Of a stretch of 59,665 bases of DNA, positions 3,845 to 49,520 are shown piece after piece; within the stretch, counting starts at the first letter, position 1; each line of letters opens with the position of its first letter. Source of the DNA: Gammaproteobacteria bacterium. GTDB lineage: Bacteria > Pseudomonadota > Gammaproteobacteria > SZUA-140. The position numbers and the translations under genes were made by a program. The stretch is taken from the NCBI GenBank assembly GCA_003230085.1, contig QIGV01000129.1, positions 1 to 59,665 on the forward strand, written 5' to 3'. Below the pieces are notes generated by a model. That model had not been told where the DNA came from, did not search any database, and saw only the letters and a program-made list of their open reading frames with translations.

Positions 3845-3848
3845 TTCT

Positions 3849-4292
3849 ATGGAGATCCAATCGGCCGCGGAGATGGAAGCGCTGGGCGCTCGGCTTGCGC
3901 AGTGTATCAGTGAGCCGGTCATGATATTCCTGCGTGGTCCGCTGGGAGCAGGCAAAACAACCCTGGTACGGGGTCTTCTAAGATCTAGTGGCCATCAGGG
4001 CGCCGTTAAAAGCCCGACCTATACCCTGGTTGAGAGCTACGCCGGGAAGGAGTATCAGATTCATCATTTTGATCTATATCGCCTGGGGCACCCCGAGGAG
4101 CTGGAAAATATTGGTATCCGTGACTATCTAGATGGCCGCTCACTATGCCTGGTAGAGTGGCCGGAGCAGGGCGTCAGTATTTTGCCGTCACCGGATCTGG
4201 AGTTGCAACTTGCCTATGCAGGCGAGCGCCGGGATGTCTCGATTAAGGCAGGATCTCCCGCTGGAGCCAATATAATGGCTTGTTTACAGTAG
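3849..4292 (+). CDS. tsaE: tRNA t6A37 threonylcarbamoyladenosine biosynthesis protein TsaE
   Basis: P-loop GPLGAGKTT and the HFDLYRL motif. The start is the ATG at 3849, 5 nt after the nnr stop. The longer ORF-track start overlaps nnr. Confidence 0.9.
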   Translation: MEIQSAAEMEALGARLAQCISEPVMIFLRGPLGAGKTTLVRGLLRSSGHQGAVKSPTYTLVESYAGKEYQIHHFDLYRLGHPEELENIGIRDYLDGRSLCLVEWPEQGVSILPSPDLELQLAYAGERRDVSIKAGSPAGANIMACLQ

Positions 4293-4466
4293 ATTCTGGG
4301 AGATGTGCATTAGAATGGCATGAGCTTTGCTACTTATATTTTGATCTTTTAGGCTGCATTCATCAGGTATTAAAATATATTTACAGTCTATCTCTCTAAA
4401 ATATTTGCATTTATCGGTAGAATGTATTAAAAATTGTCTGAGTCGGAGTCATCTGAGATAAACATA

Positions 4467-5765: not shown

Positions 5766-5858
5766 TTTTCCAGGTTATTGACATAAAATAGTCCTCACTT
5801 TCCCTTTTCTTCTTTTATAATCCCTTAATCTAAATTGATTTCGGGATCATAAAATTTC

Positions 5859-7697
5859 ATGCGTATTCATCTCCTGCCCTCACAATTGAGCAACCAGATT
5901 GCTGCTGGCGAAGTGGTCGAGAGACCGGCTTCGGTGATCAAGGAATTGCTGGAGAATAGCCTCGATGCTGGCGCTACCTCTATTGCTGTTGAGGTGATGC
6001 AGGGGGGTGCCAGCTTAATACGTGTTCGCGATAATGGACACGGCATTCATCGCGAGGATCTGGCGATGGCCTTGAGCCGCCATGCGACCAGTAAAATTAC
6101 GTCAGCAGAAGACCTGGATCGCATTGCTACGTTGGGATTTCGTGGTGAGGCCCTGCCTAGCATTGCCTCCGTCTCTAAATTGATGATTACTTCCCGCCAG
6201 AGCGAGGCTGAAGCGGCTTGGTCAATACGCGGTAATGGCACAGATGAGGGTAGTGAGTCGATTACCCCGGGTGAGGTCTCTGCCCGAGAGGGTGCACTGG
6301 TACCCGCAGCCCATCAGGCCGGTACAACGGTTGAGGTCAGGGATCTGTTTTTCAATATCCCGGCACGAAGAAAATTCCTGCGCACCGAAAAAACTGAATT
6401 CAGTCATATCGAAACCGTGTTCCGGCGTATTGCATTGAGCCGTTTCGAGGTGGCGTTTACCCTGACTCACAATCAACGTCAGATCTACCAGCTAAAGCCG
6501 GTAACCGACAGGGCGCAGCAAATAACGCGTGTTGCCGATATTTGCGGGCAGGCCTTTGCATCCAACCTTATTGAAATTGAGTGTGAAACGACTGGTCTGC
6601 GTTTGTGGGGCTGGATAGGTTTGCCGACATTTTCACGTAGTCAGACGGATCTTCAATTCTTTTTCGTGAACGGGCGTGTCATTCGTGATCGTCTGGTAGG
6701 CTATGCGGTTCGCCAAGCCTACCAGGATGTACTTTTCCATGGCCGCCATCCGGTATATGCCTTATATCTTGAAATGTCGGCGGAACAGGTGGATGTCAAT
6801 GTGCATCCTACCAAGCATGAAGTACGCTTCAGGGAGAGTCGTGCAGTGCGCGATTTTCTGTTCAGCGCCATCAACCAGTCCCTAGCGGACATCAGGCCCG
6901 ATAGTGTCAGCGGTGCATCTGCCGGGTTAGTTGCGCGGGAGCAATCATCGGTAACGAATTATGCCCAGTCTCCCGGACCCCGGCAGGCACCTATTTCTTT
7001 ACAAGTACGCGAACAGATGAGTAATGCCTATAACACTTTTTTCAATCTTGCCCGTGAAAATATCCCGGCAGGAGAACAGCTAGCTGTTGCAGAACAAGCG
7101 GCTCATGTCGAAAGCTATCCTTTGGGCCATGCGCTGGCCCAGTTACACGGTGTCTACATATTGGCTGAAAATGAAACAGGCCTGGTGCTGGTAGATATGC
7201 ATGCAGCGCATGAGCGCATCACCTATGAAAGAATGAAAGAGACCCTGCAACAGGGCGGGATCAAGACTCAGCCGCTGCTGGTCCCGGTTTCCCTCACGAT
7301 GAGTCGGCAAGAAGCGGCTTTGGCGGAAGAGCGCCAGGAATATTTTGCAGAACTGGGCTTTGAGATACAACGCCTCTCACCGGAAACCCTGGTTGTCCGG
7401 TCAGTACCAACATTGTTGTGTGAGTCAGATATAGAGTCCTTGGTGAGGGATGTTATTGCCGATATCAGTACCGAGGGTGATAGTGCTCGGGTAGGCGAGA
7501 GGATGAATGAGGTGCTCGCAACCATGGCGTGCCATGGTGCTGTCAGAGCCAATCGTAAGCTCACTCTCCCGGAAATGAATGCCTTGTTGCGTGACATGGA
7601 GAAAACTGAGCGTGGTGGCCAGTGCAATCATGGCCGGCCGACCTGGATAAGCTATTCGATGGATGAGCTAGACAAGCTATTTCTGCGTGGGCAGTAA
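5859..7697 (+). CDS. mutL: DNA mismatch repair protein MutL
   Basis: 612 aa. It has the GHKL ATPase N-terminus ([30 protein letters not shown]) and a conserved C-terminal dimerisation domain. Confidence 0.96.
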
Positions 7698-24096: not shown

Positions 24097-26364
24097 TCAG
24101 GAGCTTTTGGCTGTCTCTTTGTGCCTCTTGATATCGAAGGACAAGGCGTCCTTCTTAACCGTAATAGTGATGTGGCCGCCTTTAGCCAGTTTGCCGAATA
24201 GCAGTTCCTCCGCGAGTGGCTTTTTAATGTAATCCTGGATTGTTCGGGCCATTGGCCGGGCACCCATTTTCGGGTCATAACCGTGCATGGCCAGCCATTC
24301 TCGCGCTGGATTTCTAACTTTGAGCGTTACATGTTTCTCTTCCAGCTGGGCTTCCAGTTCAATGATGAATTTATCTACAACATTGGCAATAATATCCGGT
24401 GGAAGCGATTCAAATTGAATGATCGCATCAAGGCGGTTGCGAAACTCGGGAGAAAATGCCTTTTTGATGATCTCCATGCCATCGCTGGAGTGATCCTGGC
24501 TGGAGAACCCGATGGAAGGGCGGCTCATCTGCTCCGCACCAGCGTTCGTTGTCATGATTATAATCACATTGCGAAAGTCGGCTTTGCGCCCGTTGTTATC
24601 TGTCAGCGTTCCATGATCCATGACCTGCAATAGCAGGTTGAAGACATCCTGATGGGCCTTCTCGACTTCATCCAGCAGTAAAACTGCATGTGGATTTTTT
24701 GTGACCGCCTCTGTTAGCAGGCCGCCCTGGTCGTAACCGACATAGCCGGGTGGTGCGCCAATCAGTCGAGATACTGTATGCCGCTCCATATATTCAGACA
24801 TATCAAACCGGATTAGATCGATCCCCATTATTTTGGCGAGCTGATTGGTTACTTCGGTTTTCCCTACGCCTGTAGGACCCGCAAACAAAAATGAACCAAT
24901 AGGTTTATGTACATTGCCGATACCAGAGCGAGACATCTTGATCGCAGTGACTAGCGTATCAATGGCTTTATTCTGGCCATAGACGACCATTTTCAGGTCA
25001 CGATCCAGGGAACGCAATTTTCGTTTGTCTGATTGACTGACGCTGTTAGCAGGGATGCGGGCAATCTTTGCAATAATATTTTCGACATCTCGCACGCCAA
25101 TCATTTTCTTGCCTTTCCCCTCAGGTTGAAGCCGTTGAAAGGCACCTGCTTCATCAATGACGTCGATTGCTTTATCCGGCAGATGCCGGTCATTGATATA
25201 ACGATCGGCTAGTTCTGCAGCACAACGTAGGGAGTCTTTGCTATATTTGATTTTATGATGCGCCTCAAATCGCGATTTCAACCCCGTCAGTATCTGGATC
25301 GTGTCATCAACGCTGGGTTCTGTGACGTCGATTTTCTGGAAGCGCCTTGCTAGTGCACGGTCTTTTTCAAAGATACCGCGATATTCCTGGTAAGTCGTGG
25401 AGCCAATGCATTTCAGTTCTCCTGATGACAGCATAGGCTTGATCAAGTTTGAGGCGTCCATTACACCACCGGAGGTAGAACCGGCGCCAATTATGGTATG
25501 AATCTCGTCGATGAAGAGAATGGCGTGGGGTTCCTGGCGCAATTGGGAAAGTATGCCCTTGAGGCGTTTTTCAAAATCACCGCGGTATTTTGTGCCCGCG
25601 AGCAATGCCCCCATATCAAGACAGTAGATAGTGCTGTCTGATAATATTTCAGGCACATTTCCATCAACGATATTTTTCGCAAGTCCTTCGGCTATAGCTG
25701 TTTTTCCTACGCCTGCTTCACCAACAAGTAATGGGTTATTTTTTCGTCTGCGGCATAATATCTGAATCAGACGTTGCAGTTCAGCGTCGCGGCCAATCAA
25801 CGGGTCAATTTTGCCTTCTTTTGCCATAATATTCAGGTTGGTGGCAAAGTTTTCCAGTGGGCTACTGGTTGTATTTTCCCCAGCTTCATTTTCAAGTTCG
25901 GGATTGACCGGCATGCCTTCTATATCTTCGCCGGCATATTTTGAAATGCCGTGTGATATATAGTTGACAATGTCAAGGCGGGTGAGATTCTGCTCGTTTA
26001 GAAAGTAGACAGCCTGGGAATCCTGTTCTCCGAAAATCGCAACCAGTATGTTCGGAGCACTGACCTCCTGCTTGCCGGACGACTGCACATGAAATACAGC
26101 GCGCTGTAGTACTCTTTGAAAACCCAGGGTGGGTTGAGTTTCCTTTTCCTCGTCATTGAGCAGCGGCGTTGTTTCATCCAGGAAAGTAACTAGTTCCTGT
26201 TTGAGTATTTCAAGGTCTGCTCCACAGGAGTGTAAAATTGAGGCTGCTGCTGCATTGTCAATCAGTGCGAGCAGGATATGCTCAACAGTAATAAATTCGT
26301 GTTTCTTTTCACGCGCTTCTTGAAAAGCTAAGTTTAAAGTATGTTCAACGTCTTTACTCAGCAT
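24097..26364 (-). CDS. clpA: ATP-dependent Clp protease ATP-binding subunit ClpA
   Basis: It has a Clp_N domain and two AAA+ modules (GEAGVGKTA and GPTGVGKTE). It lies downstream of clpS. The start was taken as the ATG at 26364 (MLSKDVEHTL); a GTG at 26373 is the alternative. Confidence 0.95.
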   Translation of the reverse strand: MLSKDVEHTLNLAFQEAREKKHEFITVEHILLALIDNAAAASILHSCGADLEILKQELVTFLDETTPLLNDEEKETQPTLGFQRVLQRAVFHVQSSGKQEVSAPNILVAIFGEQDSQAVYFLNEQNLTRLDIVNYISHGISKYAGEDIEGMPVNPELENEAGENTTSSPLENFATNLNIMAKEGKIDPLIGRDAELQRLIQILCRRRKNNPLLVGEAGVGKTAIAEGLAKNIVDGNVPEILSDSTIYCLDMGALLAGTKYRGDFEKRLKGILSQLRQEPHAILFIDEIHTIIGAGSTSGGVMDASNLIKPMLSSGELKCIGSTTYQEYRGIFEKDRALARRFQKIDVTEPSVDDTIQILTGLKSRFEAHHKIKYSKDSLRCAAELADRYINDRHLPDKAIDVIDEAGAFQRLQPEGKGKKMIGVRDVENIIAKIARIPANSVSQSDKRKLRSLDRDLKMVVYGQNKAIDTLVTAIKMSRSGIGNVHKPIGSFLFAGPTGVGKTEVTNQLAKIMGIDLIRFDMSEYMERHTVSRLIGAPPGYVGYDQGGLLTEAVTKNPHAVLLLDEVEKAHQDVFNLLLQVMDHGTLTDNNGRKADFRNVIIIMTTNAGAEQMSRPSIGFSSQDHSSDGMEIIKKAFSPEFRNRLDAIIQFESLPPDIIANVVDKFIIELEAQLEEKHVTLKVRNPAREWLAMHGYDPKMGARPMARTIQDYIKKPLAEELLFGKLAKGGHITITVKKDALSFDIKRHKETAKSS

Positions 26365-26398
26365 TGGAGGCACCTATACATTTGTTGTCTAATCCGTA

Positions 26399-26722: not shown

Positions 26723-27133
26723 GACTTTAATTATATCGTATTTTGTAAAAAAAACCCGCCAGCCCTTTCATTTAAATATAATGAGGTCTGTCATGAAAAT
26801 AACAATAGCCATTATTTCCACTTTGCTGTCTTTACATAAAATATATCGTCATATTAATGTTTTCACTTGAGATGAATATGACTCTGCAAAATACTTGCCA
26901 GAATATTTTCTGTTTAATCGCCTGTGCAGGCTAAGCTCAGCTCTGTTTTGCACAAGCGAGTAGTCTGTGGCGGTTGGATTTTGACTATATCCTTATGAAT
27001 AGCCAGAGTATTGAGGAGGGGGGGTGAAGTCGCTGTGTAATGTGGTAATCAGGGGCTCCACGCCCCAGGCGCAGAGTTCATGCGCGCTTTATCTATAATT
27101 AACAACGTCTTGCTACGCTAATGTCTTGTTACA

Positions 27134-32679: not shown

Positions 32680-34008
<1,329 letters not shown>

Positions 34009-38261: not shown

Positions 38262-38349
38262 GGAGAGGTGGCTGAGTGGTCGAAAGCGGCGGTCTTGAAA
38301 ACCGTTGAGGGGTAACCCTCCCAGGGTTCGAATCCCTGCCTCTCCGCCA
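38262..38349 (+). tRNA. tRNA-Ser (anticodon UGA)
   Basis: The cloverleaf was read by hand. The acceptor stem is ggagagg/cctctcc, followed by discriminator G and an encoded CCA. The anticodon loop is cuUGAaa. A long variable arm (tgaggggtaaccctcc) and the T-arm caggg-ttcgaat-ccctg complete it. Confidence 0.93.
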
Positions 38350-38448: not shown

Positions 38449-39363
38449 CTAATAATTTGAATTACCTATAATGATCTGGTGGCTTTCATCAAGGATATAT
38501 TCTAAAAATGTTTGTGCGACTAAAGAGAGCTTTTTGCCTTTTAAATGTACCGCATACCAACGTCGCTTAAGTGGGAACCCTTCAACATTGAGTACTGTTA
38601 ATTTGTTTACATCACGTTCTAGCTGCACGCTGTGTAATGATAATACGGCTATTCCCAGGCCAGCCATAACGGCCTGTTTAAGTGCCTCGCTACTACCGAG
38701 TTCCATATAAGGTTCAATTTCAACTCCGTGCTCTTTCAGCAATTGATCGAAGACATACCGTGTGCCAGAACCTATTTCCCGTATTAAAAATCGTTGCTTA
38801 GCTATCTCCTTTATGGTGATATTTTTCTTATTAGCCAAAGGGTGGTCGTTATGAGCAACGATTCCAAGGATATTATTGAGGAAAGGATATGCCTCAAAAT
38901 TTCCATCTACAGGTATTTGTCCCATTATCACAAAATCATCGTCATTATTCATTAGGCGCTCAATGACACGCGCACGGTTAGTAAACTTTAGTTTTGGTTC
39001 TACTTCAGGGTACTGTTGTAAAAAAACACCTAGTAACTTTGGTAAAAAATATTTAGCGGTGGTTACCACCGACATTTGCAATGGGCCTTTTACCGTCCCT
39101 TTTAGTTCTTCAATAGCAGTTTTTAACTCGTCTACTCTATTTAAAATATCCAGACTGGCTGCATACATCGTTTTACCGGCTGTAGTAGGGAAGGTTTTTT
39201 TTCCGACCTGTTCAAATAAGGGTAATCCAGCTTGTTCTTCCAAACGTTTAATCTGAATAGAAACAGCAGGTTGTGTAATAAAAAGTTCATTAGCCGCGCG
39301 CGTGTAACTGCCAAGACGTGAGACGGATTCGAAGAGTCGTAATTGTTGTAATGTCAGATGCAT
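38449..39363 (-). CDS. cbbR: LysR-family transcriptional regulator of the RuBisCO operon
   Basis: It has an N-terminal helix-turn-helix (LTLQQLRLFESVSRLGSYTRAANELFITQPAVSIQIKRLEE). It is divergent from cbbL with a 199-bp shared control region. The start was set at the ATG at 39363. Confidence 0.88.
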   Translation of the reverse strand: MHLTLQQLRLFESVSRLGSYTRAANELFITQPAVSIQIKRLEEQAGLPLFEQVGKKTFPTTAGKTMYAASLDILNRVDELKTAIEELKGTVKGPLQMSVVTTAKYFLPKLLGVFLQQYPEVEPKLKFTNRARVIERLMNNDDDFVIMGQIPVDGNFEAYPFLNNILGIVAHNDHPLANKKNITIKEIAKQRFLIREIGSGTRYVFDQLLKEHGVEIEPYMELGSSEALKQAVMAGLGIAVLSLHSVQLERDVNKLTVLNVEGFPLKRRWYAVHLKGKKLSLVAQTFLEYILDESHQIIIGNSNY

Positions 39364-39562
39364 AGAAAGACCGATAAACAAAAGTAAATGAAAATGATAG
39401 CAAAAAGTAATTATTATTAATAGTTGATTGGGGCTATATTTCACTCACGCCTGATTAGCAGCATTAAGAGCTTGCTACCCCAGGAACATATATTGTCTTT
39501 GAAAATATATTATAAAGCTATTTTTTCAAAGTTTATCGATAAGCAACTATGAGGAATGCAAC

Positions 39563-40981
39563 ATGGCAAAGACCTATAGTGCGGGTGTAAAAGCATACCG
39601 CGAAACATATTGGGAGCCTGATTACACGGTAAAAGATACCGATATCCTGGCCTGCTTTAAAATCACACCGCAGGACGGTGTTCCTCGTGAAGAGCTTGCA
39701 GCTGCTGTTGCCGCTGAGTCTTCAACCGGTACCTGGACCACCGTGTGGACCGATCTGCTGACTGATCTAGATTATTACAAAGGCCGTTGTTACGCCATTG
39801 AAGATGTACCTGGTGATGACACCTGTTTCTATGCTTTCATTGCATACCCAATCGATTTGTTCGAAGAAGGCTCAGTGGTTAACGTGCTGACCTCTTTGGT
39901 CGGTAACGTATTCGGCTTTAAAGCACTGCGCGCACTTCGTTTGGAAGACATCCGCTTCCCAATCGCTTATGTCATGACCTGTAATGGTCCACCTCAGGGT
40001 ATCCAAATGGAGCGTGACATCCTGAATAAATACGGTCGTCCTTTCCTGGGTTGTACCATAAAACCTAAATTGGGCCTGTCTGCTAAAAACTATGGCCGTG
40101 CCTGTTACGAAGGGTTACGCGGTGGTCTTGATTTCACTAAAGATGATGAAAATGTAAACTCACAACCATTCATGCGTTGGAGAGCTCGTTTTGACTTCGT
40201 AATGGAAGCGATTCATAAAGCAGAAGCCGAAACTGGTGAGCGAAAAGGTCACTACTTAAACGTAACAGCACCTACTTTTGATGAAATGATGAAACGTGCT
40301 GAATACGCAAAAGAACTTGGTGCGCCAATCATCATGCACGATTACCTAACAGGTGGTCTGACTGCAAACACAGGCCTGGCACAGTGGTGTCAAAATAATG
40401 GTATGTTGTTACACATTCACCGCGCTATGCACGCGGTTCTTGACCGCAACCCGCACCACGGCATTCACTTCCGCGTACTAACTAAAGTACTTCGTTTGTC
40501 TGGTGGTGATCACCTTCACTCAGGTACGGTCGTTGGTAAGCTGGAAGGAGACCGCGATGCAACTCTGGGCTGGATTGACATTATGCGCGATTCCTTCATT
40601 AAAGAAGATCGTACACGTGGTATCTTCTTTGATCAGGACTGGGGTTCTATGCCTGGCGTAATCCCGGTAGCCTCCGGTGGAATTCACGTATGGCACATGC
40701 CAGCACTGGTTAGCATCTTCGGTGATGACTCCTGTCTTCAGTTCGGCGGTGGTACATTAGGTCACCCCTGGGGTAACGCTGCAGGTGCTGCTGCTAACCG
40801 TGTTGCGGTTGAAGCCTGTGTTGAAGCACGTAACATGGGTGTTGAGCTTGAGAAAGAAGGTAAGGACATTCTTACTAAGGCTGCAGCACACAGCCCAGAA
40901 CTTAAGATCGCCATGGAAACCTGGAAAGAGATCAAATTTGAATTTGATACTGTTGACAAAATCGACGTAGCACATAAATAA
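39563..40981 (+). CDS. cbbL: ribulose-1,5-bisphosphate carboxylase/oxygenase large subunit, form IA
   Basis: 472 aa with the active-site block [19 protein letters not shown] and form I green-type sequence. It is followed by cbbS and cbbQ/cbbO and has no carboxysome genes nearby, consistent with the IAq type. Confidence 0.97.
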
Positions 40982-40989
40982 ACGCCTAC

Positions 40990-41018
40990 CCCTCCTTCTC
41001 CCTCTGGGAGAAGGAGGG
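40990..41018 (+). other. intercistronic 13-bp perfect stem-loop between cbbL and cbbS
   Basis: ccctccttctccc (40990-41002) pairs with gggagaaggaggg (41006-41018) around a 3-nt loop. There is no U-run, so this is probably an mRNA stability or processing hairpin rather than a terminator. Confidence 0.7.
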
Positions 41019-41059
41019 AATCAGGATTAATTTAAAACTAATAATTTGGAGTAAATCAC

Positions 41060-41419
41060 ATGAGTGATGTACAAGATTACAGCTCGAGCTTAAGCGACGC
41101 TGCTACAAGCCGTAAATATGAAACTTTTTCTTACTTGCCTCCTTTGAGCAAAGAATCAACGCGTGCCCAGATTCAGTATATTGTTGATAAAGGCTGGAAC
41201 CCAGGTATCGAACATACCGAGCCAGAGCACGCCATGAGCAATTACTGGTATATGTGGAAGCTGCCGTTGTTTGGTGAAACAAATGTCGATGTTATTATCG
41301 CCGAAATAGAAGCCTGCCATAAAGCGCACCCGGACAACCATGTTCGTTTGTTAGGTTTTGACAATTTTTCACAGTCTGCTGGTACAGCAATGGTTGTACA
41401 CCGCGGAATTTCTGTTTAA
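41060..41419 (+). CDS. cbbS: RuBisCO small subunit
   Basis: 119 aa with FSYLPPL, the EH..PE....YW.MWKLP motif and a position directly after cbbL. Confidence 0.95.
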
Positions 41420-41451
41420 AACAATAAGGCAGAATGTGAGATTACATGAAA

Positions 41452-41488
41452 AGCCTCTGTCGGGTATATTTCGGACAGAGGCTTTTTT
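41452..41488 (+). terminator. rho-independent terminator/attenuator downstream of cbbS
   Basis: The stem is agcctctgtc (41452-41461) paired with gacagaggct (41474-41483). The T6 tract (41483-41488) begins at the last stem base. Confidence 0.8.
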
Positions 41489-41529
41489 ATCCATAACTAA
41501 GACAGCATATACTGGTTATAAGGTTTTCT

Positions 41530-41841
41530 ATGGCACGTCCTGATAAATATATTGGTGTTCAAAACGAAGTCAACGGTGGCATGACCACAATTGGGAAAAT
41601 CATTCGTGATGCATGGGTCTTCAGTTTGATTGATGAGTCGGAGACTTGTGAAGGCTGGAACTTTTCGCGTGTCGATGCTTTATTGGATAAGGTCAATAAT
41701 GAGTGGGATAAATATGGTTGCCTGGCGAGTAATTTACCCGCAGAGCTGTTTGAGAAACACCAGAGGATACATGGAAAAGCGATCGAAGCAGCGTATGCTG
41801 CTGGTTGGTGTGGTGAAGTAGAAACTGAGGATGAGGAATAA
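41530..41841 (+). CDS. hypothetical 103-aa protein with an acidic C-terminus, located between cbbS and cbbQ
   Basis: The ORF runs on the same strand as the cbb genes and fills the cbbS-cbbQ gap. A weak SD (AAGG) lies 7 nt upstream. The C-terminus is EVETEDEE. No family was recognised. Confidence 0.55.
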   Translation: MARPDKYIGVQNEVNGGMTTIGKIIRDAWVFSLIDESETCEGWNFSRVDALLDKVNNEWDKYGCLASNLPAELFEKHQRIHGKAIEAAYAAGWCGEVETEDEE

Positions 41842-41936
41842 CCAGCCCAATAATAAATTTTATTTTTATAGCTTCAAAAATGATGTTGAAACATTTTATC
41901 TTTAGTTAAGTAAAAAGATTTAGAAAACAAGAGAGA

Positions 41937-42764
41937 ATGACTATGTCCATTATTGAAAATGTCGTAGATACCGAACAATATCTAATCAAAGATGAACCAT
42001 ACTACGAACCGGTGGGACAGGAGTTAGCCTTATACGAATCTGCGTATGAAGTTCGTATGCCTATGATGATCAAGGGCCCTACTGGTTGCGGAAAATCTCG
42101 TTTTATTGAATACATGGCATGGAAGCTGGGTAAGCCGTTGATTACGGTTGCCTGTAACGAAGATATGACCGCCTCGGATCTGGTCGGTCGCTTCTTGCTT
42201 GATAAAGACGGAACCAAGTGGCAGGATGGCCCGCTAACAACTGCGGCGCGTATTGGCGCTATTTGTTACCTTGATGAAATCGTTGAAGCGCGTCAGGACA
42301 CGACAGTTGTTATTCACCCGCTTACCGACCACCGCCGTAGCCTGCCATTAGATAAAAAAGGCGAGTTAGTTCAGGCCCACCCTGATTTTCAATTGGTTAT
42401 TTCGTACAACCCAGGCTATCAGAGTTTAATGAAAGATTTAAAACAGTCGACGAAGCAGCGTTTCGGCGGCCTGTATTTTGATTATCCTGAGGAAAAGATT
42501 GAAATAAATATCGTCTCCAGGGAGTCTGGAGTCGATGCTGAAACCGCAGAAAAACTGGTGCATATCGCACAGCGTGCACGCAACCTGAAGGGTCATGGTC
42601 TGGATGAAGGTATTTCGACGCGCTTACTGGTTTATTCTGGTCAGCTGATCGCTAAGGGTGTGTCACCCCTGGAAGCTTGCAGTATGACGATGGTGACACC
42701 TTTAACTGATGATCCCGACATGCGCGATACACTGAATGCCTCTATTGAAACATTTTTTGGATAG
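41937..42764 (+). CDS. cbbQ: RuBisCO activase subunit CbbQ (MoxR-type AAA+ ATPase)
   Basis: 275 aa with Walker A GPTGCGKS, Walker B CYLDEIVEA and the typical CbbQ/NirQ/NorQ sequence. Confidence 0.93.
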   Translation: MTMSIIENVVDTEQYLIKDEPYYEPVGQELALYESAYEVRMPMMIKGPTGCGKSRFIEYMAWKLGKPLITVACNEDMTASDLVGRFLLDKDGTKWQDGPLTTAARIGAICYLDEIVEARQDTTVVIHPLTDHRRSLPLDKKGELVQAHPDFQLVISYNPGYQSLMKDLKQSTKQRFGGLYFDYPEEKIEINIVSRESGVDAETAEKLVHIAQRARNLKGHGLDEGISTRLLVYSGQLIAKGVSPLEACSMTMVTPLTDDPDMRDTLNASIETFFG

Positions 42765-42869
42765 AACATATCAGGAATATAGTGGCAGTAATATCGCGAG
42801 CTGAAGTATTCGAATTATTAATACTTCTACCTCTACCTCTTGTTGTTCTGGCCATGATAGAAACATTAT

Positions 42870-45212
42870 ATGTCGATAAATCTCGAAGATTACGAGGGTA
42901 TTCTAGCTGAGGCTGCACCAGAGATTCGCGATGTCCTGGAAAGTACCTTTCAGGAAGCATCGCGTGTTATGTCACCTGCTGGTCTGCAAGAATATATGAG
43001 CGGCGCCATAAGTTTATGCAATTTAGGTCGTGGTTCCAATGTGGTGATTTCTTATCTTCAGGAGATGCCGCTGATTGCAAAAGAGTGTGGTGAAGATGTC
43101 ATCAGTGATTGCCTTGCCGCGGCCATGAAACTTTCTTCTATGACCTCCGGTGAGGTGGTTGCACTATTGTTTAGTAGTATGCCAACAGCGGCACGTAATC
43201 TTGGCGATGCTGAACTATTTCGTGGCTATCTAACATTAATACACCAGCTTGCATCAACTGCTTCACGCGGTGTTCGACCAATGCTCAATCATATTGATGA
43301 GTTGTTATCTAAATTAACACTGAGTGGTTTACGTCGCTGGGCGAATTTTGGTGCGCAGGCCTATCGCAGGGATTTTAATAATCTTACAGCTTATTTTAAT
43401 CTTGAATCTGCGGACAGCCGTGCGGTATTACAAAAAGAACGCCGCGGCGTATTATTCATAAAAACTCAACGAAAATTAAATTTTTACCTGCGCGCCTTAT
43501 GGGGGCGAGATTTTTTCTTGCGTCCTACCGGCGCTGACTTCGCGGATTTCCGTCCTTTTATCGAACACCGGATATTGCATCTGCCCGATGCTCTGGACGA
43601 CAGCAGTGATGTTCCGGGCTTAGAGATCTACCGCGCAACGGCTGCACACATGGCCGCACACATGATGTATTCCACGGCACCGATATCAGCCGAGGGTCTT
43701 AGTCCGGCGCAGATGTTTTTCATTGGTCTGGTGGAAGATGCCCGTATCGAATACAAAGCCATCAATGAATTTCCAGGCTTAAAGAAACTCTGGCGTTCAC
43801 TGATGGATGTGGTTAGCGAAGAAAAATCTGAACACCCGACCATGCCATTACTGGAATTATTTGCGATCATGCTGCTGGATGCAACTGTAACGTCGGATGA
43901 TAAAGAGCTGAATGCAATCGCACAAAGATTCCATGATGGCATTCTTGAAAATCAGAACAACAATAATTTCTGCTGGCATCTTGGTCTGGATATTTTTAAT
44001 TGTTTCTCATCGCGAAAAGAAGTGCCAAGTCTGCGTATTCTGGAGCGTATCGATATCCCTTACCGTGACGATAACCGCTATGTCTGGGAGTTTGAAGAAT
44101 TTACCTGGGAAGTCGGGAACGAATATGTGCCAACAAGCCAGCGGCAGGTACGACGTCAGGTCAGCGTCATTGAAATGGCAAACGAGGTCGATTGTGAACT
44201 GGCCGGTGATGACGCGCAGGAAATCTGGACCTGTTCGACCAATATGCGCCCTTATGAAGATGATCTGACCGATGAACAGAAAAGCTTCAATGACATGTGG
44301 GGGAAAGAGCCGGTTTCTGATCCTTATCATTATCAGGAATGGGATTACCGGATTCAACTCCATCGGCCGGATTGGGCAACCATTTATGAACGACGCCAGC
44401 CACGTGGCCATGTCGAGGATATTCAGGCTATCATTGATGCATACAAACCAGTTGCGCATCGCATAAAACAGATCATCGACTTGCTCACTCCGGAGGGAGT
44501 GCAGCGTGTGCGCAATATGGAAGATGGTGACGAAGTGGATATCAACGCTGCCATCGATGCCATGATTGCGGTTCGTATGGGCGAGCAGCCGAACACCCGC
44601 ATTACCATGCGCAATGTATTAAAAACGCGGGATCTGTCGGTCGTATTATTACTGGACCTGTCTGAATCAACCAATGAGCCGATGAATGGTTCAGAAAAAA
44701 CGGTATTACAGCTCACTCGTGAAGCAGCGACCCTGGTGGCGACCGCAATTGAAGGCATTGGAGATCCGTTTGCTATTCACGGTTTCGCTTCCGATGGTCG
44801 TCATGATGTGCAGTATTACCGTTTTAAAGATTTTAATCAGCACTTTGATGACGAAGCAAAATCACGGTTAGCCGGTATGAAAGGTGGTTTGTCAACCCGC
44901 ATGGGTGGTGCCCTGCGTCATGCGGGCTATCACCTGCTAAAGCAGCAGGAGAAGCGTAAATTAGTTTTATTAGTTACTGACGGTGAGCCAGCAGATATTG
45001 ACGAGCGTGATCCACAGCATCTTCGACACGATACTAAAAAGGCAGTTGAAGAACTCTATAGTACGGGTGTTATAACCTATTGTCTGACACTTGATCCAAA
45101 TGCTGATGATTATGTAAAAAGAATATTTGGCGCGAATAACTATACCATTATCGATCATGTCGATAAATTACCAGAACAGTTGCCCGTTTTGTTTGCTAGC
45201 CTGACGGCATAA
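42870..45212 (+). CDS. cbbO: RuBisCO activase adaptor CbbO (C-terminal von Willebrand factor A domain)
   Basis: 780 aa. The vWA/MIDAS motif is VVLLLDLSESTNE. It is paired with cbbQ, as in other form IAq loci. Confidence 0.9.
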   Translation: MSINLEDYEGILAEAAPEIRDVLESTFQEASRVMSPAGLQEYMSGAISLCNLGRGSNVVISYLQEMPLIAKECGEDVISDCLAAAMKLSSMTSGEVVALLFSSMPTAARNLGDAELFRGYLTLIHQLASTASRGVRPMLNHIDELLSKLTLSGLRRWANFGAQAYRRDFNNLTAYFNLESADSRAVLQKERRGVLFIKTQRKLNFYLRALWGRDFFLRPTGADFADFRPFIEHRILHLPDALDDSSDVPGLEIYRATAAHMAAHMMYSTAPISAEGLSPAQMFFIGLVEDARIEYKAINEFPGLKKLWRSLMDVVSEEKSEHPTMPLLELFAIMLLDATVTSDDKELNAIAQRFHDGILENQNNNNFCWHLGLDIFNCFSSRKEVPSLRILERIDIPYRDDNRYVWEFEEFTWEVGNEYVPTSQRQVRRQVSVIEMANEVDCELAGDDAQEIWTCSTNMRPYEDDLTDEQKSFNDMWGKEPVSDPYHYQEWDYRIQLHRPDWATIYERRQPRGHVEDIQAIIDAYKPVAHRIKQIIDLLTPEGVQRVRNMEDGDEVDINAAIDAMIAVRMGEQPNTRITMRNVLKTRDLSVVLLLDLSESTNEPMNGSEKTVLQLTREAATLVATAIEGIGDPFAIHGFASDGRHDVQYYRFKDFNQHFDDEAKSRLAGMKGGLSTRMGGALRHAGYHLLKQQEKRKLVLLVTDGEPADIDERDPQHLRHDTKKAVEELYSTGVITYCLTLDPNADDYVKRIFGANNYTIIDHVDKLPEQLPVLFASLTA

Positions 45213-45337: not shown

Positions 45338-45802
45338 TCAATTATGTTCAGGTGAGGAATTTAACGGTAGGAGACTGATTTTACAGTCTGTGTTCAGTGA
45401 GTCGCAATGACGTTGGTCAATTAGTCGCATCGACTGGTAAAGTTCACTGTTCAATCTATTTTGAACTTCACACATATCTTTACCATAAAAAATAATCCTG
45501 AAATCCATGTTCTGGTTTAAGCCCTCACGTTGATTTGCATTTAATAACGGGTGCCATGAAATTCTGATCAACCGACCGCCCTCATCGCCACGAACCGCAT
45601 AATCTAAACTATCGACAAACCAGAAGGCATTCTTTTCAAGAATAGCAAGATATTGCAATGGACGTATAGGAACAAATATATAATCTGATTGGCTTCGTTT
45701 AAGCAGCACATGGGCAAGGTTGTAAGTCTTCGACAATAACCGGCTTTCCTGGCAAAAAAACTCATCAGGTGTAAAAAATGATTGAGTATCATGTGCTGTC
45801 AT
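45338..45802 (-). CDS. hypothetical cytoplasmic protein (154 aa)
   Basis: ORF only. It lies on the same strand as, and 166 nt downstream of, the riboswitch-controlled gene. It has no signal peptide, no obvious SD and no recognised family. Confidence 0.45.
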   Translation of the reverse strand: MTAHDTQSFFTPDEFFCQESRLLSKTYNLAHVLLKRSQSDYIFVPIRPLQYLAILEKNAFWFVDSLDYAVRGDEGGRLIRISWHPLLNANQREGLNQNMDFRIIFYGKDMCEVQNRLNSELYQSMRLIDQRHCDSLNTDCKISLLPLNSSPEHN

Positions 45803-45968
45803 AAAATGAATTGTAGCACTATAATTAATTTAAAACCGCGCGACAGGGAGTTTACGGGGCGGCAGTGGGTTTATTAATAAATGAAAGAGGAGGGGCCTTG
45901 CTGGGTGTTACCAGGACGACCTTAAATAAGATCGCCCTGGTGAATTAACAGCCTTGGTAGGATGAATA

Positions 45969-46949
45969 TTACGGTAGTGAAGGGGCTGTGCCGAAATTAT
46001 TGGTGTCCCAATCAAATGGATCGATGATGTCTGAGCTTGGTAGACTCAGTGCGATGAGTTCCGCGCCGACATTCTGATCCAGATTCTTTACTGATTGATA
46101 GTTAAAGCCACTACCATCTACTCCTTTATCCTTGTAAGCAATCCAGGTAGTGGATATCGTGTCGCCATCTGACCAGGTTATGGTTGAATCAAGTGTCATT
46201 TGACCTTGTGTCGTCACTGGGTTTAGCTGCAGGTTTTGCGTCGCTTCATCAAAGCTACCTGCCCAACCACCTCTCTCACGAAAAGCAAAATTCTCTTCTG
46301 CACTGAATGGATCATTGATGTCACCTAATGGCAGCCGCTGATCGATGTCTATTCGTTTGCCGAAATATATTTCGCTGCCTTCGTTAATATCGGTCGTGTT
46401 TTGATATAAAACGAAATCGCTGTTTAAGCCACTAGCATCATTAATTGATTGTGAAATATTCATTTCTGCGATATTGATAAAGTTACCCTGCGTATCAACA
46501 AATGAATTACGGTTAAATTCCGTAATGCTATCAAAAGAATTGTCCAGTTCACGTATATTCTGCTTGAAATTGATATCTATACCCGTCGGGTTGTCCATAG
46601 GGATAAAATTTTCATCCGCAAATGTTAGTGTGTTCGCATTACCCGTAGCACCTGCTTCGGTCACAATAGTGCGGGTGAAGGAGCCATGGGCGGTGTTAAC
46701 CTGTTGTTGGAGGAACCCATCATCATCTACCAGTGTGGTGCAGCTTACTGAACCATTACATGATAATGAGGTATCAATCACACCATTGTTTACGGTCCAG
46801 CCATCAAAAACGACAGCAGGCTGATCTGCCAGAGCAATACTGCATAGGAGCGATGACATTGTCATCATCGCAAATTTTATAGAGGGCAATCTATGGCGTG
46901 GATGATTTGTGTCAAGAGATGACTTGATGTGGGCCTGGTGTGAGATCAT
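45969..46949 (-). CDS. secreted protein of unknown function (c-di-GMP riboswitch-controlled)
   Basis: The start was placed at the ATG at 46949 because AGGAGG lies 9 nt upstream. A charged N-region precedes the hydrophobic core AMMTMSSLLCSIALA. The mature part is rich in N/D/T/S/G. No family was recognised. Confidence 0.65.
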   Translation of the reverse strand: MISHQAHIKSSLDTNHPRHRLPSIKFAMMTMSSLLCSIALADQPAVVFDGWTVNNGVIDTSLSCNGSVSCTTLVDDDGFLQQQVNTAHGSFTRTIVTEAGATGNANTLTFADENFIPMDNPTGIDINFKQNIRELDNSFDSITEFNRNSFVDTQGNFINIAEMNISQSINDASGLNSDFVLYQNTTDINEGSEIYFGKRIDIDQRLPLGDINDPFSAEENFAFRERGGWAGSFDEATQNLQLNPVTTQGQMTLDSTITWSDGDTISTTWIAYKDKGVDGSGFNYQSVKNLDQNVGAELIALSLPSSDIIDPFDWDTNNFGTAPSLP

Positions 46950-47104
46950 GATTATCGTCCTCCTCATTCGTTTTTCGCAGAATCCTGAGTTTTAATGCCC
47001 AGGAATAATGGCGGCGATCGACTCTATGAGGAGGGTAAACCAGAATTACAGCTATAGCAGGGCGTACGGCATTCCATTGCCCATGTGCAGCTGTTGATCA
47101 ATAA

Positions 47105-47208
47105 TCTCTCTGGTAGTCCCGCTGTCATTACACCATCCGAGGGATGGTTTATCAGACCGGTGACTTTGCGTCCCTACCTTTCGGTCAGGTTTGCCTTTAT
47201 CTGAGCAT
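47105..47208 (-). ncRNA. c-di-GMP-I (GEMM-I) riboswitch aptamer
   Basis: The minus-strand RNA reads GAUAAAGGCAAACCUGACCGAAAGGUAGGGACGCAAAGUCACCGGUCUGAUAAACCAUCCCUCGGAUGGUGUAAUGACAGCGGGACUACCAGAG. The blocks GGCAAACC, a GAAA tetraloop, GGGACGCAAAG, CACCGG, AAACCAU and AGCGGG..UACC appear in the same order and spacing as in the V. cholerae Vc2 aptamer recalled from memory. Confidence 0.85.
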
Positions 47209-47219
47209 CTTCAGGAGAA

Positions 47220-47246
47220 GCTATCGGCTAGTTTCCGGGATTCTTT
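47220..47246 (-). promoter_or_regulatory. sigma-28 (FliA) promoter: TAAAGAAT-N11-GCCGATAG
   Basis: The reverse complement of 47220-47246 is TAAAGAATcccggaaactaGCCGATAG. Against the consensus TAAAGTTT-N11-GCCGATAA, it matches 6/8 in the -35 and 7/8 in the -10, with exact 11-nt spacing. The predicted transcription start falls a few nt before the riboswitch. Confidence 0.75.
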
Positions 47247-47264
47247 AACCGGAGGTCCCCTAAT

Positions 47265-49389: not shown

Positions 49390-49493
49390 GGTTTCTGATG
49401 CCTAAACACTTTATCCTAATGGCCCATCTGGCCATATAAAACATACATAAATCATGCCAACACTGGGTCGGCCTTGGGTTATTCAGCGTTAAC

Positions 49494-49520
49494 TTAAGAA
49501 TTATCTGATGAAGTCGATAA
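49494..49520 (+). promoter_or_regulatory. candidate sigma-28 promoter of cheV-cheR (TTAAGAAT-N11-GTCGATAA)
   Basis: The -10 matches 7/8 and the -35 matches 5/8 to the FliA consensus, with exact 11-nt spacing. It lies 36 nt upstream of the cheV ATG. Confidence 0.55.

Follow-up and report, generated by a model that had tools for sequence, protein, structure and literature searches.

Organization of the locus

The window, that is, the whole stretch of 59,665 nucleotides analysed here, carries on its minus strand a c-di-GMP-I (GEMM-I) riboswitch aptamer lodged between a cheY-like gene and a gene for a 326-amino acid protein. The aptamer begins only 60 nt past the stop codon of the cheY-like gene and ends 159 nt upstream of the ATG at 46949. 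The main features of the locus are as follows:

47221..47248, minus strand: putative sigma-28 (FliA)-type promoter, composed of a -35 element TTAAAGAAT, an 11-nt spacer and a -10 element GCCGATAG
47247-47243, minus strand: TAAAG of the -35 element TTAAAGAAT, read from the sequence
47228-47221, minus strand: -10 element GCCGATAG, read from the sequence
47109..47205, minus strand: c-di-GMP-I (GEMM-I) aptamer, with limits from RF01051, a full-length match and covariation
45969..46949, minus strand: gene predicted to be regulated, encoding the 326-aa protein (open reading frame; start from alignment of homologue N termini and Shine-Dalgarno spacing)
45911..45940, minus strand: predicted fourteen-bp hairpin about 30 nt past the stop codon

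The start codon at 46949 is backed both by the spacing of the Shine-Dalgarno (SD) sequence and by the aligned N termini of homologues; an in-frame ATG further upstream, at 46967, lies within the SD sequence itself and is not likely to be the start. The intergenic gap had been given as 297 nt in the original prediction, a figure that fits this upstream ATG, and has to be corrected to 315 nt when counted from the cheY-like stop codon (47265) to the ATG at 46949. The encoded protein bears an N-terminal signal peptide, probably cleaved between ALA and DQP, as well as two conserved cysteines, and its mature form has a net charge of -29. It is predicted from its signal peptide to be secreted, is very acidic, and is all-beta in its AF2 model (pLDDT 78). 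The protein gave no match to Pfam, NCBIfam or PDB sequence profiles, and 10 of its long relatives gave none to Pfam, within a family that comprises 385 representative clusters. Foldseek searches against the PDB and viral models returned nothing significant (best E-values 0.13 and 0.011, TM-scores <0.3); the matches show a faint lean towards outer-membrane beta-barrels. A monocistronic unit probably ends at the hairpin at 45911..45940, where a simple scan found no T-run terminator.

A class-I c-di-GMP aptamer with a canonical ligand pocket

When the whole window was analysed with Rfam cmscan, RF01051 (c-di-GMP-I) matched at 47205-47109 on the minus strand and scored 67.7 bits, the gathering score being 35 (E = 3.9e-11), with the alignment spanning model positions 1-87 of 87. 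RF01051 was the best family retained within clan CL00126, and a tRNA was the sole other Rfam match in the window. With this E-value and a full-length match, the resemblance is therefore far beyond chance, and 47205-47109 is a genuine, ordinary class-I c-di-GMP riboswitch aptamer. The match covers the full model with almost double the threshold score and bears out the GEMM-I identity put forward in the original prediction, whose span (47105-47208) differs from the Rfam limits by only 3-4 nt; all the sequence blocks that it had quoted (GGCAAACC, GAAA, GGGACGCAAAG, UCACCGG, AAACCAU and AGCGGGACUACC) are found on the minus strand. The elements of the aptamer, in the direction of transcription, are:

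47201..47205, minus strand: 5' strand of P1a, CUCAG, ending at the G14 equivalent and pairing with CAGAG at 47112-47108
47200-47196, minus strand: junction AUAAA, between the P1a 5' strand and G20
47195, minus strand: G20, the first G of GGCAAACC (RF01051 alignment)
47195-47188, minus strand: GGCAAACC, conserved aptamer block read from the sequence
47168..47194, minus strand: first aptamer hairpin, from G21 to C46 (RF01051 structure line and alignment)
47182-47179, minus strand: GAAA tetraloop, read from the sequence
47174-47164, minus strand: GGGACGCAAAG, conserved aptamer block read from the sequence
47167, minus strand: A47 (RF01051 alignment)
47115..47165, minus strand: second aptamer hairpin (P3 in crystal-structure naming), with a receptor-like internal loop CUGAU...UAAUGAC (RF01051, covariation)
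47113, minus strand: C92, expected to pair with one ligand guanine (RF01051 alignment)
Ending at 47112, minus strand: AGCGGGACUACC, conserved aptamer block read from the sequence
47112-47108, minus strand: 3' strand of P1a, C93-G97, pairing with the P1a 5' strand

The first hairpin, which corresponds to P2 in crystal-structure naming and had been called P1b in the original prediction, carries the GAAA tetraloop, and the second hairpin carries CUGAU...UAAUGAC where the consensus is CUAA...AUGAC. In the alignment of 13 leaders (the window and 12 relatives), RNAalifold predicted 22 pairs in the aptamer helices, 12 of which show double compensatory changes; G21-C46 and C22-G45 are invariant while the inner pairs of the first hairpin covary, and the pairs of the apical stem of the second hairpin covary strongly.

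The pocket nucleotides G20, A47 and C92 are all canonical in the window, and both G20 and C92 are kept in 13/13 leaders. A47 intercalates in the ligand pocket of this class. G20 has been shown to read one ligand guanine and C92 to pair with the other (PMC6140456). Because all three positions are canonical, the ligand is expected to be c-di-GMP and not cGAMP. The base that governs specificity had been placed immediately 5' of CAAACC; that base is in fact G21, which is paired with C46 in the structure line of the RF01051 model, and G20 sits two positions 5' of CAAACC. Since G20 and G21 are both G, the conclusion that the aptamer is of the c-di-GMP type stands. A C92U variant suspected in the L020-L022 clade was dropped, as C92 is kept there and only U93 differs.

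Next to the pocket, P1a consists in the window of a G-C pair, an A.A mismatch and C-G, U-A and C-G pairs, that is, four Watson-Crick pairs and one mismatch. A helix in the same register, with 5-6 of 7 pairs, is present in 13/13 leaders and adjoins C92 in every one of them; its sequences differ between the two leader types, which amounts to covariation at the level of the helix. A short P1 has been reported for class-I members with a weak P1 (PMC9262584). In the Vc2 aptamer, the ligand guanine gI pairs with C92, shows an NOE to G14 and stacks on it, and U90, G94 and U96 are also named (PMC11705072). From these residue numbers and the Vc2 sequence, we take C92 to be the first C of the ACC motif. 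An extended P1 (UCAGAUAA:UUAUUGA) competing with an AUG-masking helix, which would follow ON logic, was considered and dropped, the five nucleotides before G20 being junction and P1a starting directly after C92 (PMC11705072).

Conservation of the aptamer with its downstream gene

The aptamer precedes a homologue of the same downstream gene in 13 distinct loci, the window included, and in at least three genomic neighbourhoods, so that the link between aptamer and gene is conserved. The upstream contexts vary, the aptamer being found after cheR-cheD-cheB, after a response-regulator gene or beside a PAPS-reductase gene, and the neighbours of the downstream gene also differ between homologous loci. 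Identity among the proteins of aptamer-bearing loci goes down to 33%; a scan of a single genome collection returned one Gammaproteobacteria MAG with a homologue at 69% identity. Some members of the family have departed from this arrangement. For example, the L005/L017 clade has lost the aptamer and kept the TAAAG/CGATA promoter element, and L031 has a degenerate aptamer-like sequence that scores below the Rfam threshold.

A putative sigma-28 (FliA)-type promoter ahead of each aptamer

The consensus of sigma-28 promoters is TAAAGTTT-N11-GCCGATAA, and the window element TTAAAGAAT-N11-GCCGATAG agrees with the FliA -35 and -10 consensus and with their separation. For FliA, TTAAG-N16-CCGATA has also been published as a consensus (PMC3627812). 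A pattern scan for TAAAG-N14-16-CGATA gave this element as the single match in the 59.7-kb window. Across the leader alignment, TAAAG-N16/17-CGATA ends 23-28 nt 5' of G20 in 13/13 leaders, CGATA being invariant, TAAAG nearly invariant and the spacer variable, and in each leader a separate promoter element lies between the aptamer and the gene upstream of it. By weight matrix, the window element scores within the range of shuffled sequences, which reach 15-20 in 60 kb, and the support for the promoter is therefore positional and comparative. It is for the same kind of reason that other sigma-28 sites proposed by the weight matrix were set aside, the matrix being non-discriminating in 60 kb; a similar site that precedes cheV-cheR is the only one that is contextually plausible. 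We infer that the leader mRNA begins at this sigma-28 (FliA)-type promoter, with a transcription start predicted near 47215, which would give a leader of roughly 265 nt up to the downstream gene.

Predicted switching helices in the expression platform

Between the aptamer and the start codon, the leader contains several segments that engage in alternative pairings in the predicted folds:

47097..47108, minus strand: post-aptamer tail GAGAUUAUUGAU, pairing with AUCAUGAUCUC in the minimum-free-energy fold
47048..47094, minus strand: spacer hairpin separating the aptamer from the anti-SD (ACAGCUG...CAGCUGU), common to all predicted folds
47026..47035, minus strand: anti-Shine-Dalgarno segment (anti-SD) CCCUCCUCAU, a perfect complement of AUGAGGAGG (minimum-free-energy fold)
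46995..47013, minus strand: switching segment X, CGCCAUUAUUCCUGGGCAU, complementary to GAUGCUCAGAUAAAGGC
46959..46967, minus strand: Shine-Dalgarno region AUGAGGAGG, read from the sequence and paired in the minimum-free-energy fold
46952-46942, minus strand: AUCAUGAUCUC, spanning the start codon, partner of the tail GAGAUUAUUGAU

The GGAGG core of the SD lies at 46963-46959, 9 nt ahead of the start codon, and in the minimum-free-energy fold of the full leader it is engaged in a nine-bp helix with the anti-SD. This fold, which includes the pairing of the tail with the start codon, has z = -3.6, and 0/200 shuffles fold as well; the tail pairing is seen only in the leader of the window, the equivalents in L002 and L004 having only 5 bp. 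On the other hand, a CU-rich anti-SD segment and an anti-SD/SD hairpin are predicted in all leaders. In transcripts that end before the SD, the predicted partner of the anti-SD is AGGUAGGG, which forms the 3' side of the first aptamer hairpin.

The segment X is complementary to GAUGCUCAGAUAAAGGC, which is made up of the P1a 5' strand, the junction and G20-C22. The duplex between this 5' flank and X has an energy of -22.6 kcal/mol and z = -4.1, and 0/200 shuffles are as good; a competing helix thus exists and is statistically significant. Because X pairs with the P1a 5' strand, the junction and G20, the X duplex excludes both P1a and the reading of the ligand by G20. The duplex is found again in L002, L030, L004 and L012, where U.G has changed to U-A on the X strand, is marginal in L009, L013 and L020-L022, and is not significant in L016, L007 and L018.

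The energetic consequences were estimated by ensemble calculations with explicit holo and alternative constraints, which replaced a simpler four-state minimum-free-energy comparison in which the coupling was weak (-1 to +5 kcal/mol). For the window, the cost of freeing the ribosome-binding site is 14.5 kcal/mol when the leader is in the ligand-competent fold and 2.7 when it is in the alternative one; 12/13 leaders show a positive difference (mean +5.5). For transcripts that have not yet reached the SD, the calculations favour the alternative fold, by 9 kcal/mol for the window and by 4-18 kcal/mol for 10/11 leaders; these values are on the scale of the binding energy of a pM-nM ligand. Once the leader is complete, the model prefers the SD-sequestered fold by about 5 kcal/mol even without ligand, and any ON state would therefore require a kinetic switch; such secondary-structure energies take no account of tertiary contacts or kinetics. 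A terminator scan of the window found no intrinsic terminator between the aptamer and the ATG. An antiterminator/terminator pair considered for the L020-L022 leaders was unsupported by the scanner and the folds, with a loop of 17-19 nt and no T-run, and a 10-codon ORF in the leader (47084-47052), which has no SD and is not conserved in L002 or L004, was treated as a chance occurrence.

Discussion

Our analyses suggest, with a probability of about 0.6, that the locus encodes a translational OFF switch, in which a leader transcribed from a sigma-28-type promoter carries a class-I aptamer ahead of the gene for a secreted, acidic, all-beta product, and that the riboswitch probably blocks translation of this product at high c-di-GMP. 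During transcription and without ligand, the P1a 5' strand, the junction and G20-C22 would pair with X (47013-46995), the anti-SD would be held by the G-rich 3' strand of the first aptamer hairpin, and the SD and AUG would be left open for the protein to be made. Upon binding of c-di-GMP, G20, C92 and P1a would be locked in the aptamer and X freed into a local hairpin, leaving the anti-SD (47035-47026) to pair with the SD (46967-46959) and the post-aptamer tail to pair with the AUG, which would block initiation. Combined with the sigma-28-type promoter, this logic would make expression of the gene depend on low c-di-GMP together with an active late flagellar sigma factor.

Several other explanations were weighed against this one. 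c-di-GMP often induces secreted or adhesive proteins, and the target resembles a protein of this type, so that in biological terms a switch of the opposite polarity would be the better fit; c-di-GMP would then expose the SD and AUG, and the protein would be made at the motile-to-sessile transition, with FliA still active. Class-I members of both polarities are known (PMC9262584), the thermodynamic coupling is small in several leaders, and in L012 the minimum-free-energy fold accommodates the 5' flank:X helix, which resembles an extended closing helix, together with both aptamer hairpins. We nevertheless regard such an ON switch as unlikely. The X helix occupies G20 (as part of G20-C22 in the window and close relatives, and of G19-G20 in L012), the Watson-Crick edge of which must be free for ligand reading (PMC6140456), and X pairing and ligand binding therefore exclude each other; moreover, release of X favours SD sequestration in 12/13 leaders, and no segment was found that would hold the anti-SD only in the ligand-bound state. 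It is quite improbable that, instead of being a cis translational switch for the gene downstream, the aptamer acts mainly on RNA stability, belongs to a small RNA or sponge transcribed from the sigma-28 promoter to bind c-di-GMP, or serves the flgM-flgN-cheY transcript as a 3' element. Its closeness to the cheY-like stop codon would suit such a role, for Vc2 control over the stability of a small RNA upstream has been reported (bioRxiv 10.1101/617340), and Bdellovibrio has, in merRNA, an abundant riboswitch-containing RNA of its FliA-dominated attack phase that is followed by no ORF (PMC3627812). However, the aptamer accompanies its downstream gene across unrelated upstream contexts, behind a promoter element of its own in each leader, and the anti-SD/SD hairpin of every leader, with no terminator detected between aptamer and ATG, points to the downstream gene as the target.

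As to the ligand, the fold is shared with the GEMM-Ib riboswitches and sequence gives no certain specificity, so that 3'3'-cGAMP, alone or together with c-di-GMP, has to be considered. The known GEMM-Ib members come mainly from relatives of Geobacter, whereas the window looks gammaproteobacterial. Position 20 has been described as contributing to selectivity without being an absolute filter (PMC9262584), but it is G in the window and in 12/12 related leaders, along with a canonical C92 and A47, and for Vc2, which has G20, the affinity is in the pM range for c-di-GMP and only 10 uM for cGAMP (PMC6140456); recognition of another cyclic dinucleotide is therefore very improbable. A chance resemblance or a decayed, functionless relic would recall the degenerate sequence of L031 and the loss of the aptamer in the L005/L017 clade. 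The probability of this is close to nil, being effectively refuted by the full-model Rfam match (E = 3.9e-11), the conservation of the locus and the covariation, with invariant pocket nucleotides and compensatory changes in the helices among loci with proteins down to 33% identical.

The riboswitch by itself adds one more member to a well-studied class with thousands of representatives. What is added here is the putative sigma-28-type promoter on every leader and the two mutually exclusive folds predicted for the leader. Used as a functional tag, the riboswitch would put a widespread, unannotated family of secreted proteins under c-di-GMP control, and the conserved promoter would place it in the flagellar late-gene programme, which gives a concrete starting hypothesis for the family. 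More tentatively, and at somewhat less than even odds, the promoter and riboswitch may together mark an unrecognised late-flagellar-class family (about 385 clusters; secreted, acidic, all-beta) under an AND-NOT gate, with FliA active and c-di-GMP low. In that case, vent and sediment Gammaproteobacteria would have in this protein a new component of the periplasm or the cell surface that is associated with motility, and the leader, compact at about 265 nt, would be a natural case of a sigma-factor input and a second-messenger input combined on one mRNA. The 13 related expression platforms could also help explain how class-I aptamers with a weak P1 control translation at a distance.

Among characterised systems, the closest parallel is found in Vc2, from the 5' leader of tfoY in Vibrio cholerae. 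Both aptamers belong to RF01051 and have the G20/A47/C92 pocket, a hairpin with a GAAA tetraloop, a second, receptor-like hairpin and a short P1a beside C92. In Vc2, the formation of P1 upon ligand binding represses translation and makes it a translational OFF switch (PMC9262584 and PMC11705072), the same logic as is predicted here from sequence and computed folds. The two differ in their target, a regulator (tfoY) for Vc2 and a predicted secreted beta-rich protein for the window, in their junction (CACAG and AUAAA, respectively) and in their expression platforms, which are unrelated in sequence, the leader of the window starting at the conserved sigma-28-type promoter.

A link between a class-I aptamer and motility genes is also seen in Cd1, upstream of the flgB flagellar operon of Clostridioides difficile. 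This operon is an early flagellar one and includes the gene for SigD, a sigma-28 homologue. Cd1 is an OFF member acting by transcription termination, pilM being a transcriptional ON member. The two have been studied as an ON/OFF pair (PMC9262584), and Cd1 is without a P1 helix (PMC9262584). In contrast, the riboswitch of the window lies downstream of a sigma-28-type promoter, has a P1a and no terminator, and precedes a single non-structural gene. The GEMM-Ib riboswitches for 3'3'-cGAMP (Geobacter Gs1761, pilM) have their overall fold and Rfam clan in common with the window, but carry A at the equivalent of Vc2 G20 (PMC6140456), where the window (47195) and 12/12 relatives have G. Another c-di-GMP-I aptamer within a FliA-type sigma programme, with a TTAAG-N16-CCGATA consensus, is the Bdellovibrio merRNA, which has been proposed to serve as a c-di-GMP reservoir and whose own entry in the promoter table is not marked as FliA-dependent (PMC3627812). 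Unlike merRNA, the aptamer of the window precedes a conserved protein-coding gene with a platform predicted to sequester the SD.

Aptamer identity and ligand pocket

The whole window was scanned with cmscan against Rfam 15 at gathering thresholds, and the two matches returned were a tRNA (38262-38346) and a c-di-GMP-I element (RF01051) at 47205-47109 on the minus strand, which covers model positions 1-87 of 87 with E = 3.9e-11 and a score of 67.7 bits, the gathering score of the family being 35. The original prediction of a c-di-GMP-I riboswitch, which had named a covariance-model check as decisive, is supported by this result, and the conserved GEMM-I blocks on which it relied are all found on the minus strand at 47208-47105; the aptamer had thus been correctly recognized. 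No ORF of at least 50 aa overlaps it on either strand. The upstream gap, put at 297 nt, is actually 315 nt to the ATG at 46949, 297 nt being the distance to an in-frame ATG (46967) that falls within the Shine-Dalgarno (SD) sequence. RNAalifold predicts both hairpins of the family from 13 aptamers, with compensatory double changes in 12 of 22 pairs and invariant pocket and junction nucleotides. With the register of helix P1a set from Vc2 geometry, 13/13 leaders show the helix with 5-6 of 7 positions paired, as CUCAG:CAGAG in one group and GUCAUUG:CAGGGAC or GUCAUUG:CGAAGAC in another; in the window, CUCAG (47205-47201) faces CAGAG (47112-47108), where four of the five positions form Watson-Crick pairs and the remaining one is an A.A mismatch. 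The element is almost certainly a true class-I aptamer, a riboswitch class that is very well known, and its intrinsic novelty is low.

Pocket nucleotides of the window aptamer (Vc2 numbering)
47195, minus strand: G20
47167, minus strand: A47
47113, minus strand: C92

We assign C92 to the leading C of the ACC motif, assuming the Vc2 sequence and the residue numbers given in PMC11705072. The G just 5' of CAAACC, proposed earlier as specificity determinant, corresponds to G21, the partner of C46 in the RF01051 structure line; the specificity nucleotide is G20, the first G of GGCAAACC. G20 and C92 are kept in every related leader, and a candidate C92U variant in one clade was rejected, the U in those leaders sitting at position 93 only. 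[quoted passage not shown] PMC11705072 places the C92-paired guanine, by an NOE, near G14 at the top of P1a and names U90, G94, and U96.

Conserved association with the downstream gene

The target gene lies between carbon-fixation and flagellar clusters, as follows.

Genes around the aptamer
39563-45212, plus strand: cbbL, cbbS, cbbQ, and cbbO ORFs
45338-45802, minus strand: unannotated 154-aa ORF between the target gene and cbbO
45969-46949, minus strand: target gene, 326 aa
47265-47627, minus strand: single-domain response regulator beyond the riboswitch, followed on the same strand by FlgN, FlgM, and FlgA
Plus strand: CheV, CheR, and flgB, C, D, and E

DNA around relatives of the target protein was retrieved and scanned with Rfam. 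The homologue is immediately preceded by a full-length RF01051 match, scoring 45-75 bits, in 12 more distinct loci (L002, L004, L016, L030, L012, L007, L018, L020, L021, L022, L009, and L013), whose proteins range from 72% down to ~33% identity to that of the window. The homologue comes after cheR-cheD-cheB in L002 and L004 and is preceded by a response-regulator gene in L012, like in the window; in L007, L009, L013, and others, a PAPS-reductase gene adjoins and motility genes are absent nearby. Because the pairing is shared across differing neighborhoods, the aptamer travels with the target gene, and we put the probability that its ligand is c-di-GMP and that it controls the gene at 46949-45969 at about 0.85-0.9. 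This conserved association of the riboswitch with an unannotated secreted-protein family is newly added here. The Rfam scan found no aptamer in the fetched loci of homologues at ≤31% identity, nor in a 55%-identity clade (L005, L006, and L017). Downstream neighbors also vary among loci, and a perfect 14-bp hairpin, CCAGGGCGAUCUUAUUUAAGGUCGUCCUGG, lies ~30 nt past the target stop codon (45911-45940, minus strand), so the regulated unit is probably monocistronic; lacking a T-run, the hairpin may be a 3'-end stabilizer or an atypical terminator. The 154-aa ORF has no match in Pfam or NCBIfam and does not adjoin homologues in the other loci.

Some further features were observed. In the 55%-identity clade, the aptamer-less region (L005 ~4930-5000, L017 ~1430-1500) leaves only ~82 nt after cheB. 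At ~260-400 of L031, GGCAACCCUGCUCGAAAGACAGGUUCGCAAGGGG...GACAGCGGAACUGCCAGG resembles the aptamer in degenerate form; it stays under the Rfam gathering score, reads UCGCA rather than ACGCA, has a second hairpin that is shortened, and may represent a GEMM-I variant or an aptamer in decay. In L011, a distant homologue without riboswitch (30% identity, 5001-6158) is just downstream of a PAS-GGDEF-EAL gene (2647-4812), a possible further link between the family and c-di-GMP. Elsewhere in the window, a LysR-family regulator (38449-39444, minus strand) is divergent from cbbL-cbbS-(103-aa ORF)-cbbQ-cbbO, the usual CbbR arrangement of chemoautotrophic proteobacteria. The tRNA (plus strand, 62.3 bits) has a long variable arm and an anticodon loop, CUUGAAA, that suggests tRNA-Ser(UGA); a seryl-tRNA synthetase gene is at 32725-34008.

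The protein family of the probable target gene

The 326-aa protein has no match in Pfam or NCBIfam, none in a PDB sequence-profile search, and only unnamed relatives (15 clusters) in a word-indexed search, whereas an exhaustive profile search gave 385 representative clusters at E ≤ 1e-3, of which 72 reach E ≤ 1e-30. Its N terminus is basic and then hydrophobic, with a probable predicted cleavage site ALA|DQP; the net charge of the mature part is -29, D, N, S, and T make up 39% of its residues, and two cysteines are kept among homologues. An AlphaFold2 model from 15 sequences (pLDDT 78, pTM 0.67) shows an all-beta fold, the long strands starting at residue 50. Foldseek found nothing significant in the PDB (best E 0.13) or among viral models (0.011), with TM-scores <0.3, the matches leaning faintly toward outer-membrane beta-barrels. 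Some family proteins are 650-795 aa long with 2-4 tandem domain copies, and P0044, P0051, P0053, P0060, P0071, P0097, and P0138 were singled out from the profile search. Because the 10 long members tested contain no Pfam domain, this looks like an undescribed domain family. The regulation of the target protein suggests a motility-associated envelope or secreted component.

A probable sigma-28-type promoter precedes the riboswitch

TAAAG-N16/17-CGATA occurs in every leader and stops 23-28 nt short of G20; its window copy is TTAAAGAAT-N11-GCCGATAG (47248-47221), and the pattern has one match in 59.7 kb against 0.28 expected by chance. Aligning 14 upstream regions shows an invariant CGATA and an almost invariant TAAAG, with variable spacer and discriminator. 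We equate this element with the sigma-28 (FliA) consensus, which we take to be TAAAGTTT-N11-GCCGATAA. A FliA consensus of TTAAG-N16-CCGATA is quoted in PMC3627812. L031 has TTAAG-N16-CGATAA ahead of its aptamer-like sequence. Because the L005/L017 clade has lost the aptamer and retains TCAAG-N15-GCCGATAA ~55 nt before its ATG, the promoter seems evolutionarily more stable there than the riboswitch. Scores of a weight matrix built from the leader sites are matched in size in shuffled sequence, so the support is positional and comparative; on that basis, the leader promoter is probably sigma-28-dependent, and its conservation in front of the riboswitch is a second new element of this work. No paper describing such a promoter-riboswitch combination for a protein-coding gene was found in a limited full-text search, the nearest precedent being Bdellovibrio merRNA (PMC3627812).

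The matrix also selects CTTAAGAAT-N11-GTCGATAA (49493-49520, plus strand) just upstream of cheV-cheR, which may be FliA-dependent. This site overlaps the first ATG (49508) of the CheV-like ORF, and the real start is therefore probably downstream, at ~49556 ('MTSVMDG...'). Another high-scoring match, CTCAAGTGA-N12-GACGATAT (26843-26871, minus strand), lies 470 nt ahead of a ClpA/ClpB-type AAA+ gene (24097-26373) and is probably due to chance, given the shuffle background.

Predicted expression platform and proposed switching model

No intrinsic terminator was found in the stretch from the aptamer to the ATG. In its minimum-free-energy fold (z-score -3.6; 0/200 shuffles as good), the leader keeps 19/25 aptamer pairs, with the second hairpin complete, and pairs the anti-SD CCCUCCUCAU (47035-47026) with AUGAGGAGG (46967-46959), while the tail that follows the aptamer (47108-47097) is paired with the region of the start codon (46952-46942); a hairpin sequestering the SD is found in nearly all leaders. 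When the leader is ended just before the SD, the preferred fold switches: the 5' flank GAUGCUCAGAUAAAGGC, made up of the P1a 5' strand, the junction, and G20-C22, now forms a duplex with a downstream segment, X (47013-46995), and AGGUAGGG, which is the 3' strand of the first aptamer hairpin, is bound by the anti-SD. Because it occupies the P1a 5' strand and the pairing face of G20, the flank:X duplex excludes ligand binding; in the window, X also lies in the loop of the anti-SD:SD hairpin, so that duplex and hairpin are topologically incompatible.

Stability of the flank:X duplex and shuffles as good
Window: -22.6 kcal/mol, 0/200
L002: -22.7 kcal/mol, 0/200
L030: -21.0 kcal/mol, 3/200
L004: -22.2 kcal/mol, 3/200
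L012: -17.9 kcal/mol, 1/200

Among these five leaders, the X strand shows a U.G to U-A change. In other clades, the duplex is weaker and bipartite but unchanged in position, 22-38 nt upstream of the AUG, with a distal arm of AGUCA:UGACU, GGUCA:UGACC, or GAGG:CCUC by clade; significance in the shuffle test was not reached in L016, L007, and L018. A ten-codon ORF (MGNGMPYALL*, 47084-47052, minus strand) inside the spacer hairpin of the leader lacks an SD and is conserved in neither L002 nor L004, and its MGN start probably resembles homologue N termini by chance.

A ligand-competent state, with the aptamer hairpins enforced and pocket nucleotides unpaired, was compared with an alternative enforcing flank:X. 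The computed cost of opening the SD-AUG region of the window leader is 14.5 kcal/mol in the former versus 2.7 in the latter, and the difference is positive in 12/13 leaders (mean +5.5). In SD-less transcripts, the alternative fold is favored by 9.0 kcal/mol in the window and by 4-18 kcal/mol in 10/11 evaluable leaders, a scale of preference that a pM-nM ligand could offset. A cruder four-state calculation gives a coupling of only -1 to +5 kcal/mol. The SD-sequestered fold is already preferred by ~5 kcal/mol in the full window leader, and the open state must therefore be co-transcriptional and kinetically trapped. These models point, with moderate confidence, to a translational OFF switch as the most likely mechanism, in which c-di-GMP would lock P1a, G20, and C92, X would be released, and the anti-SD and tail would then mask the SD and AUG. 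A switch of opposite polarity is unlikely; c-di-GMP and motility are generally antagonistic, which fits the OFF direction. This specific, testable model is also new relative to the original prediction. Its logic is the same as that of Vc2, for which PMC9262584 and PMC11705072 describe ligand-dependent P1 formation repressing translation.
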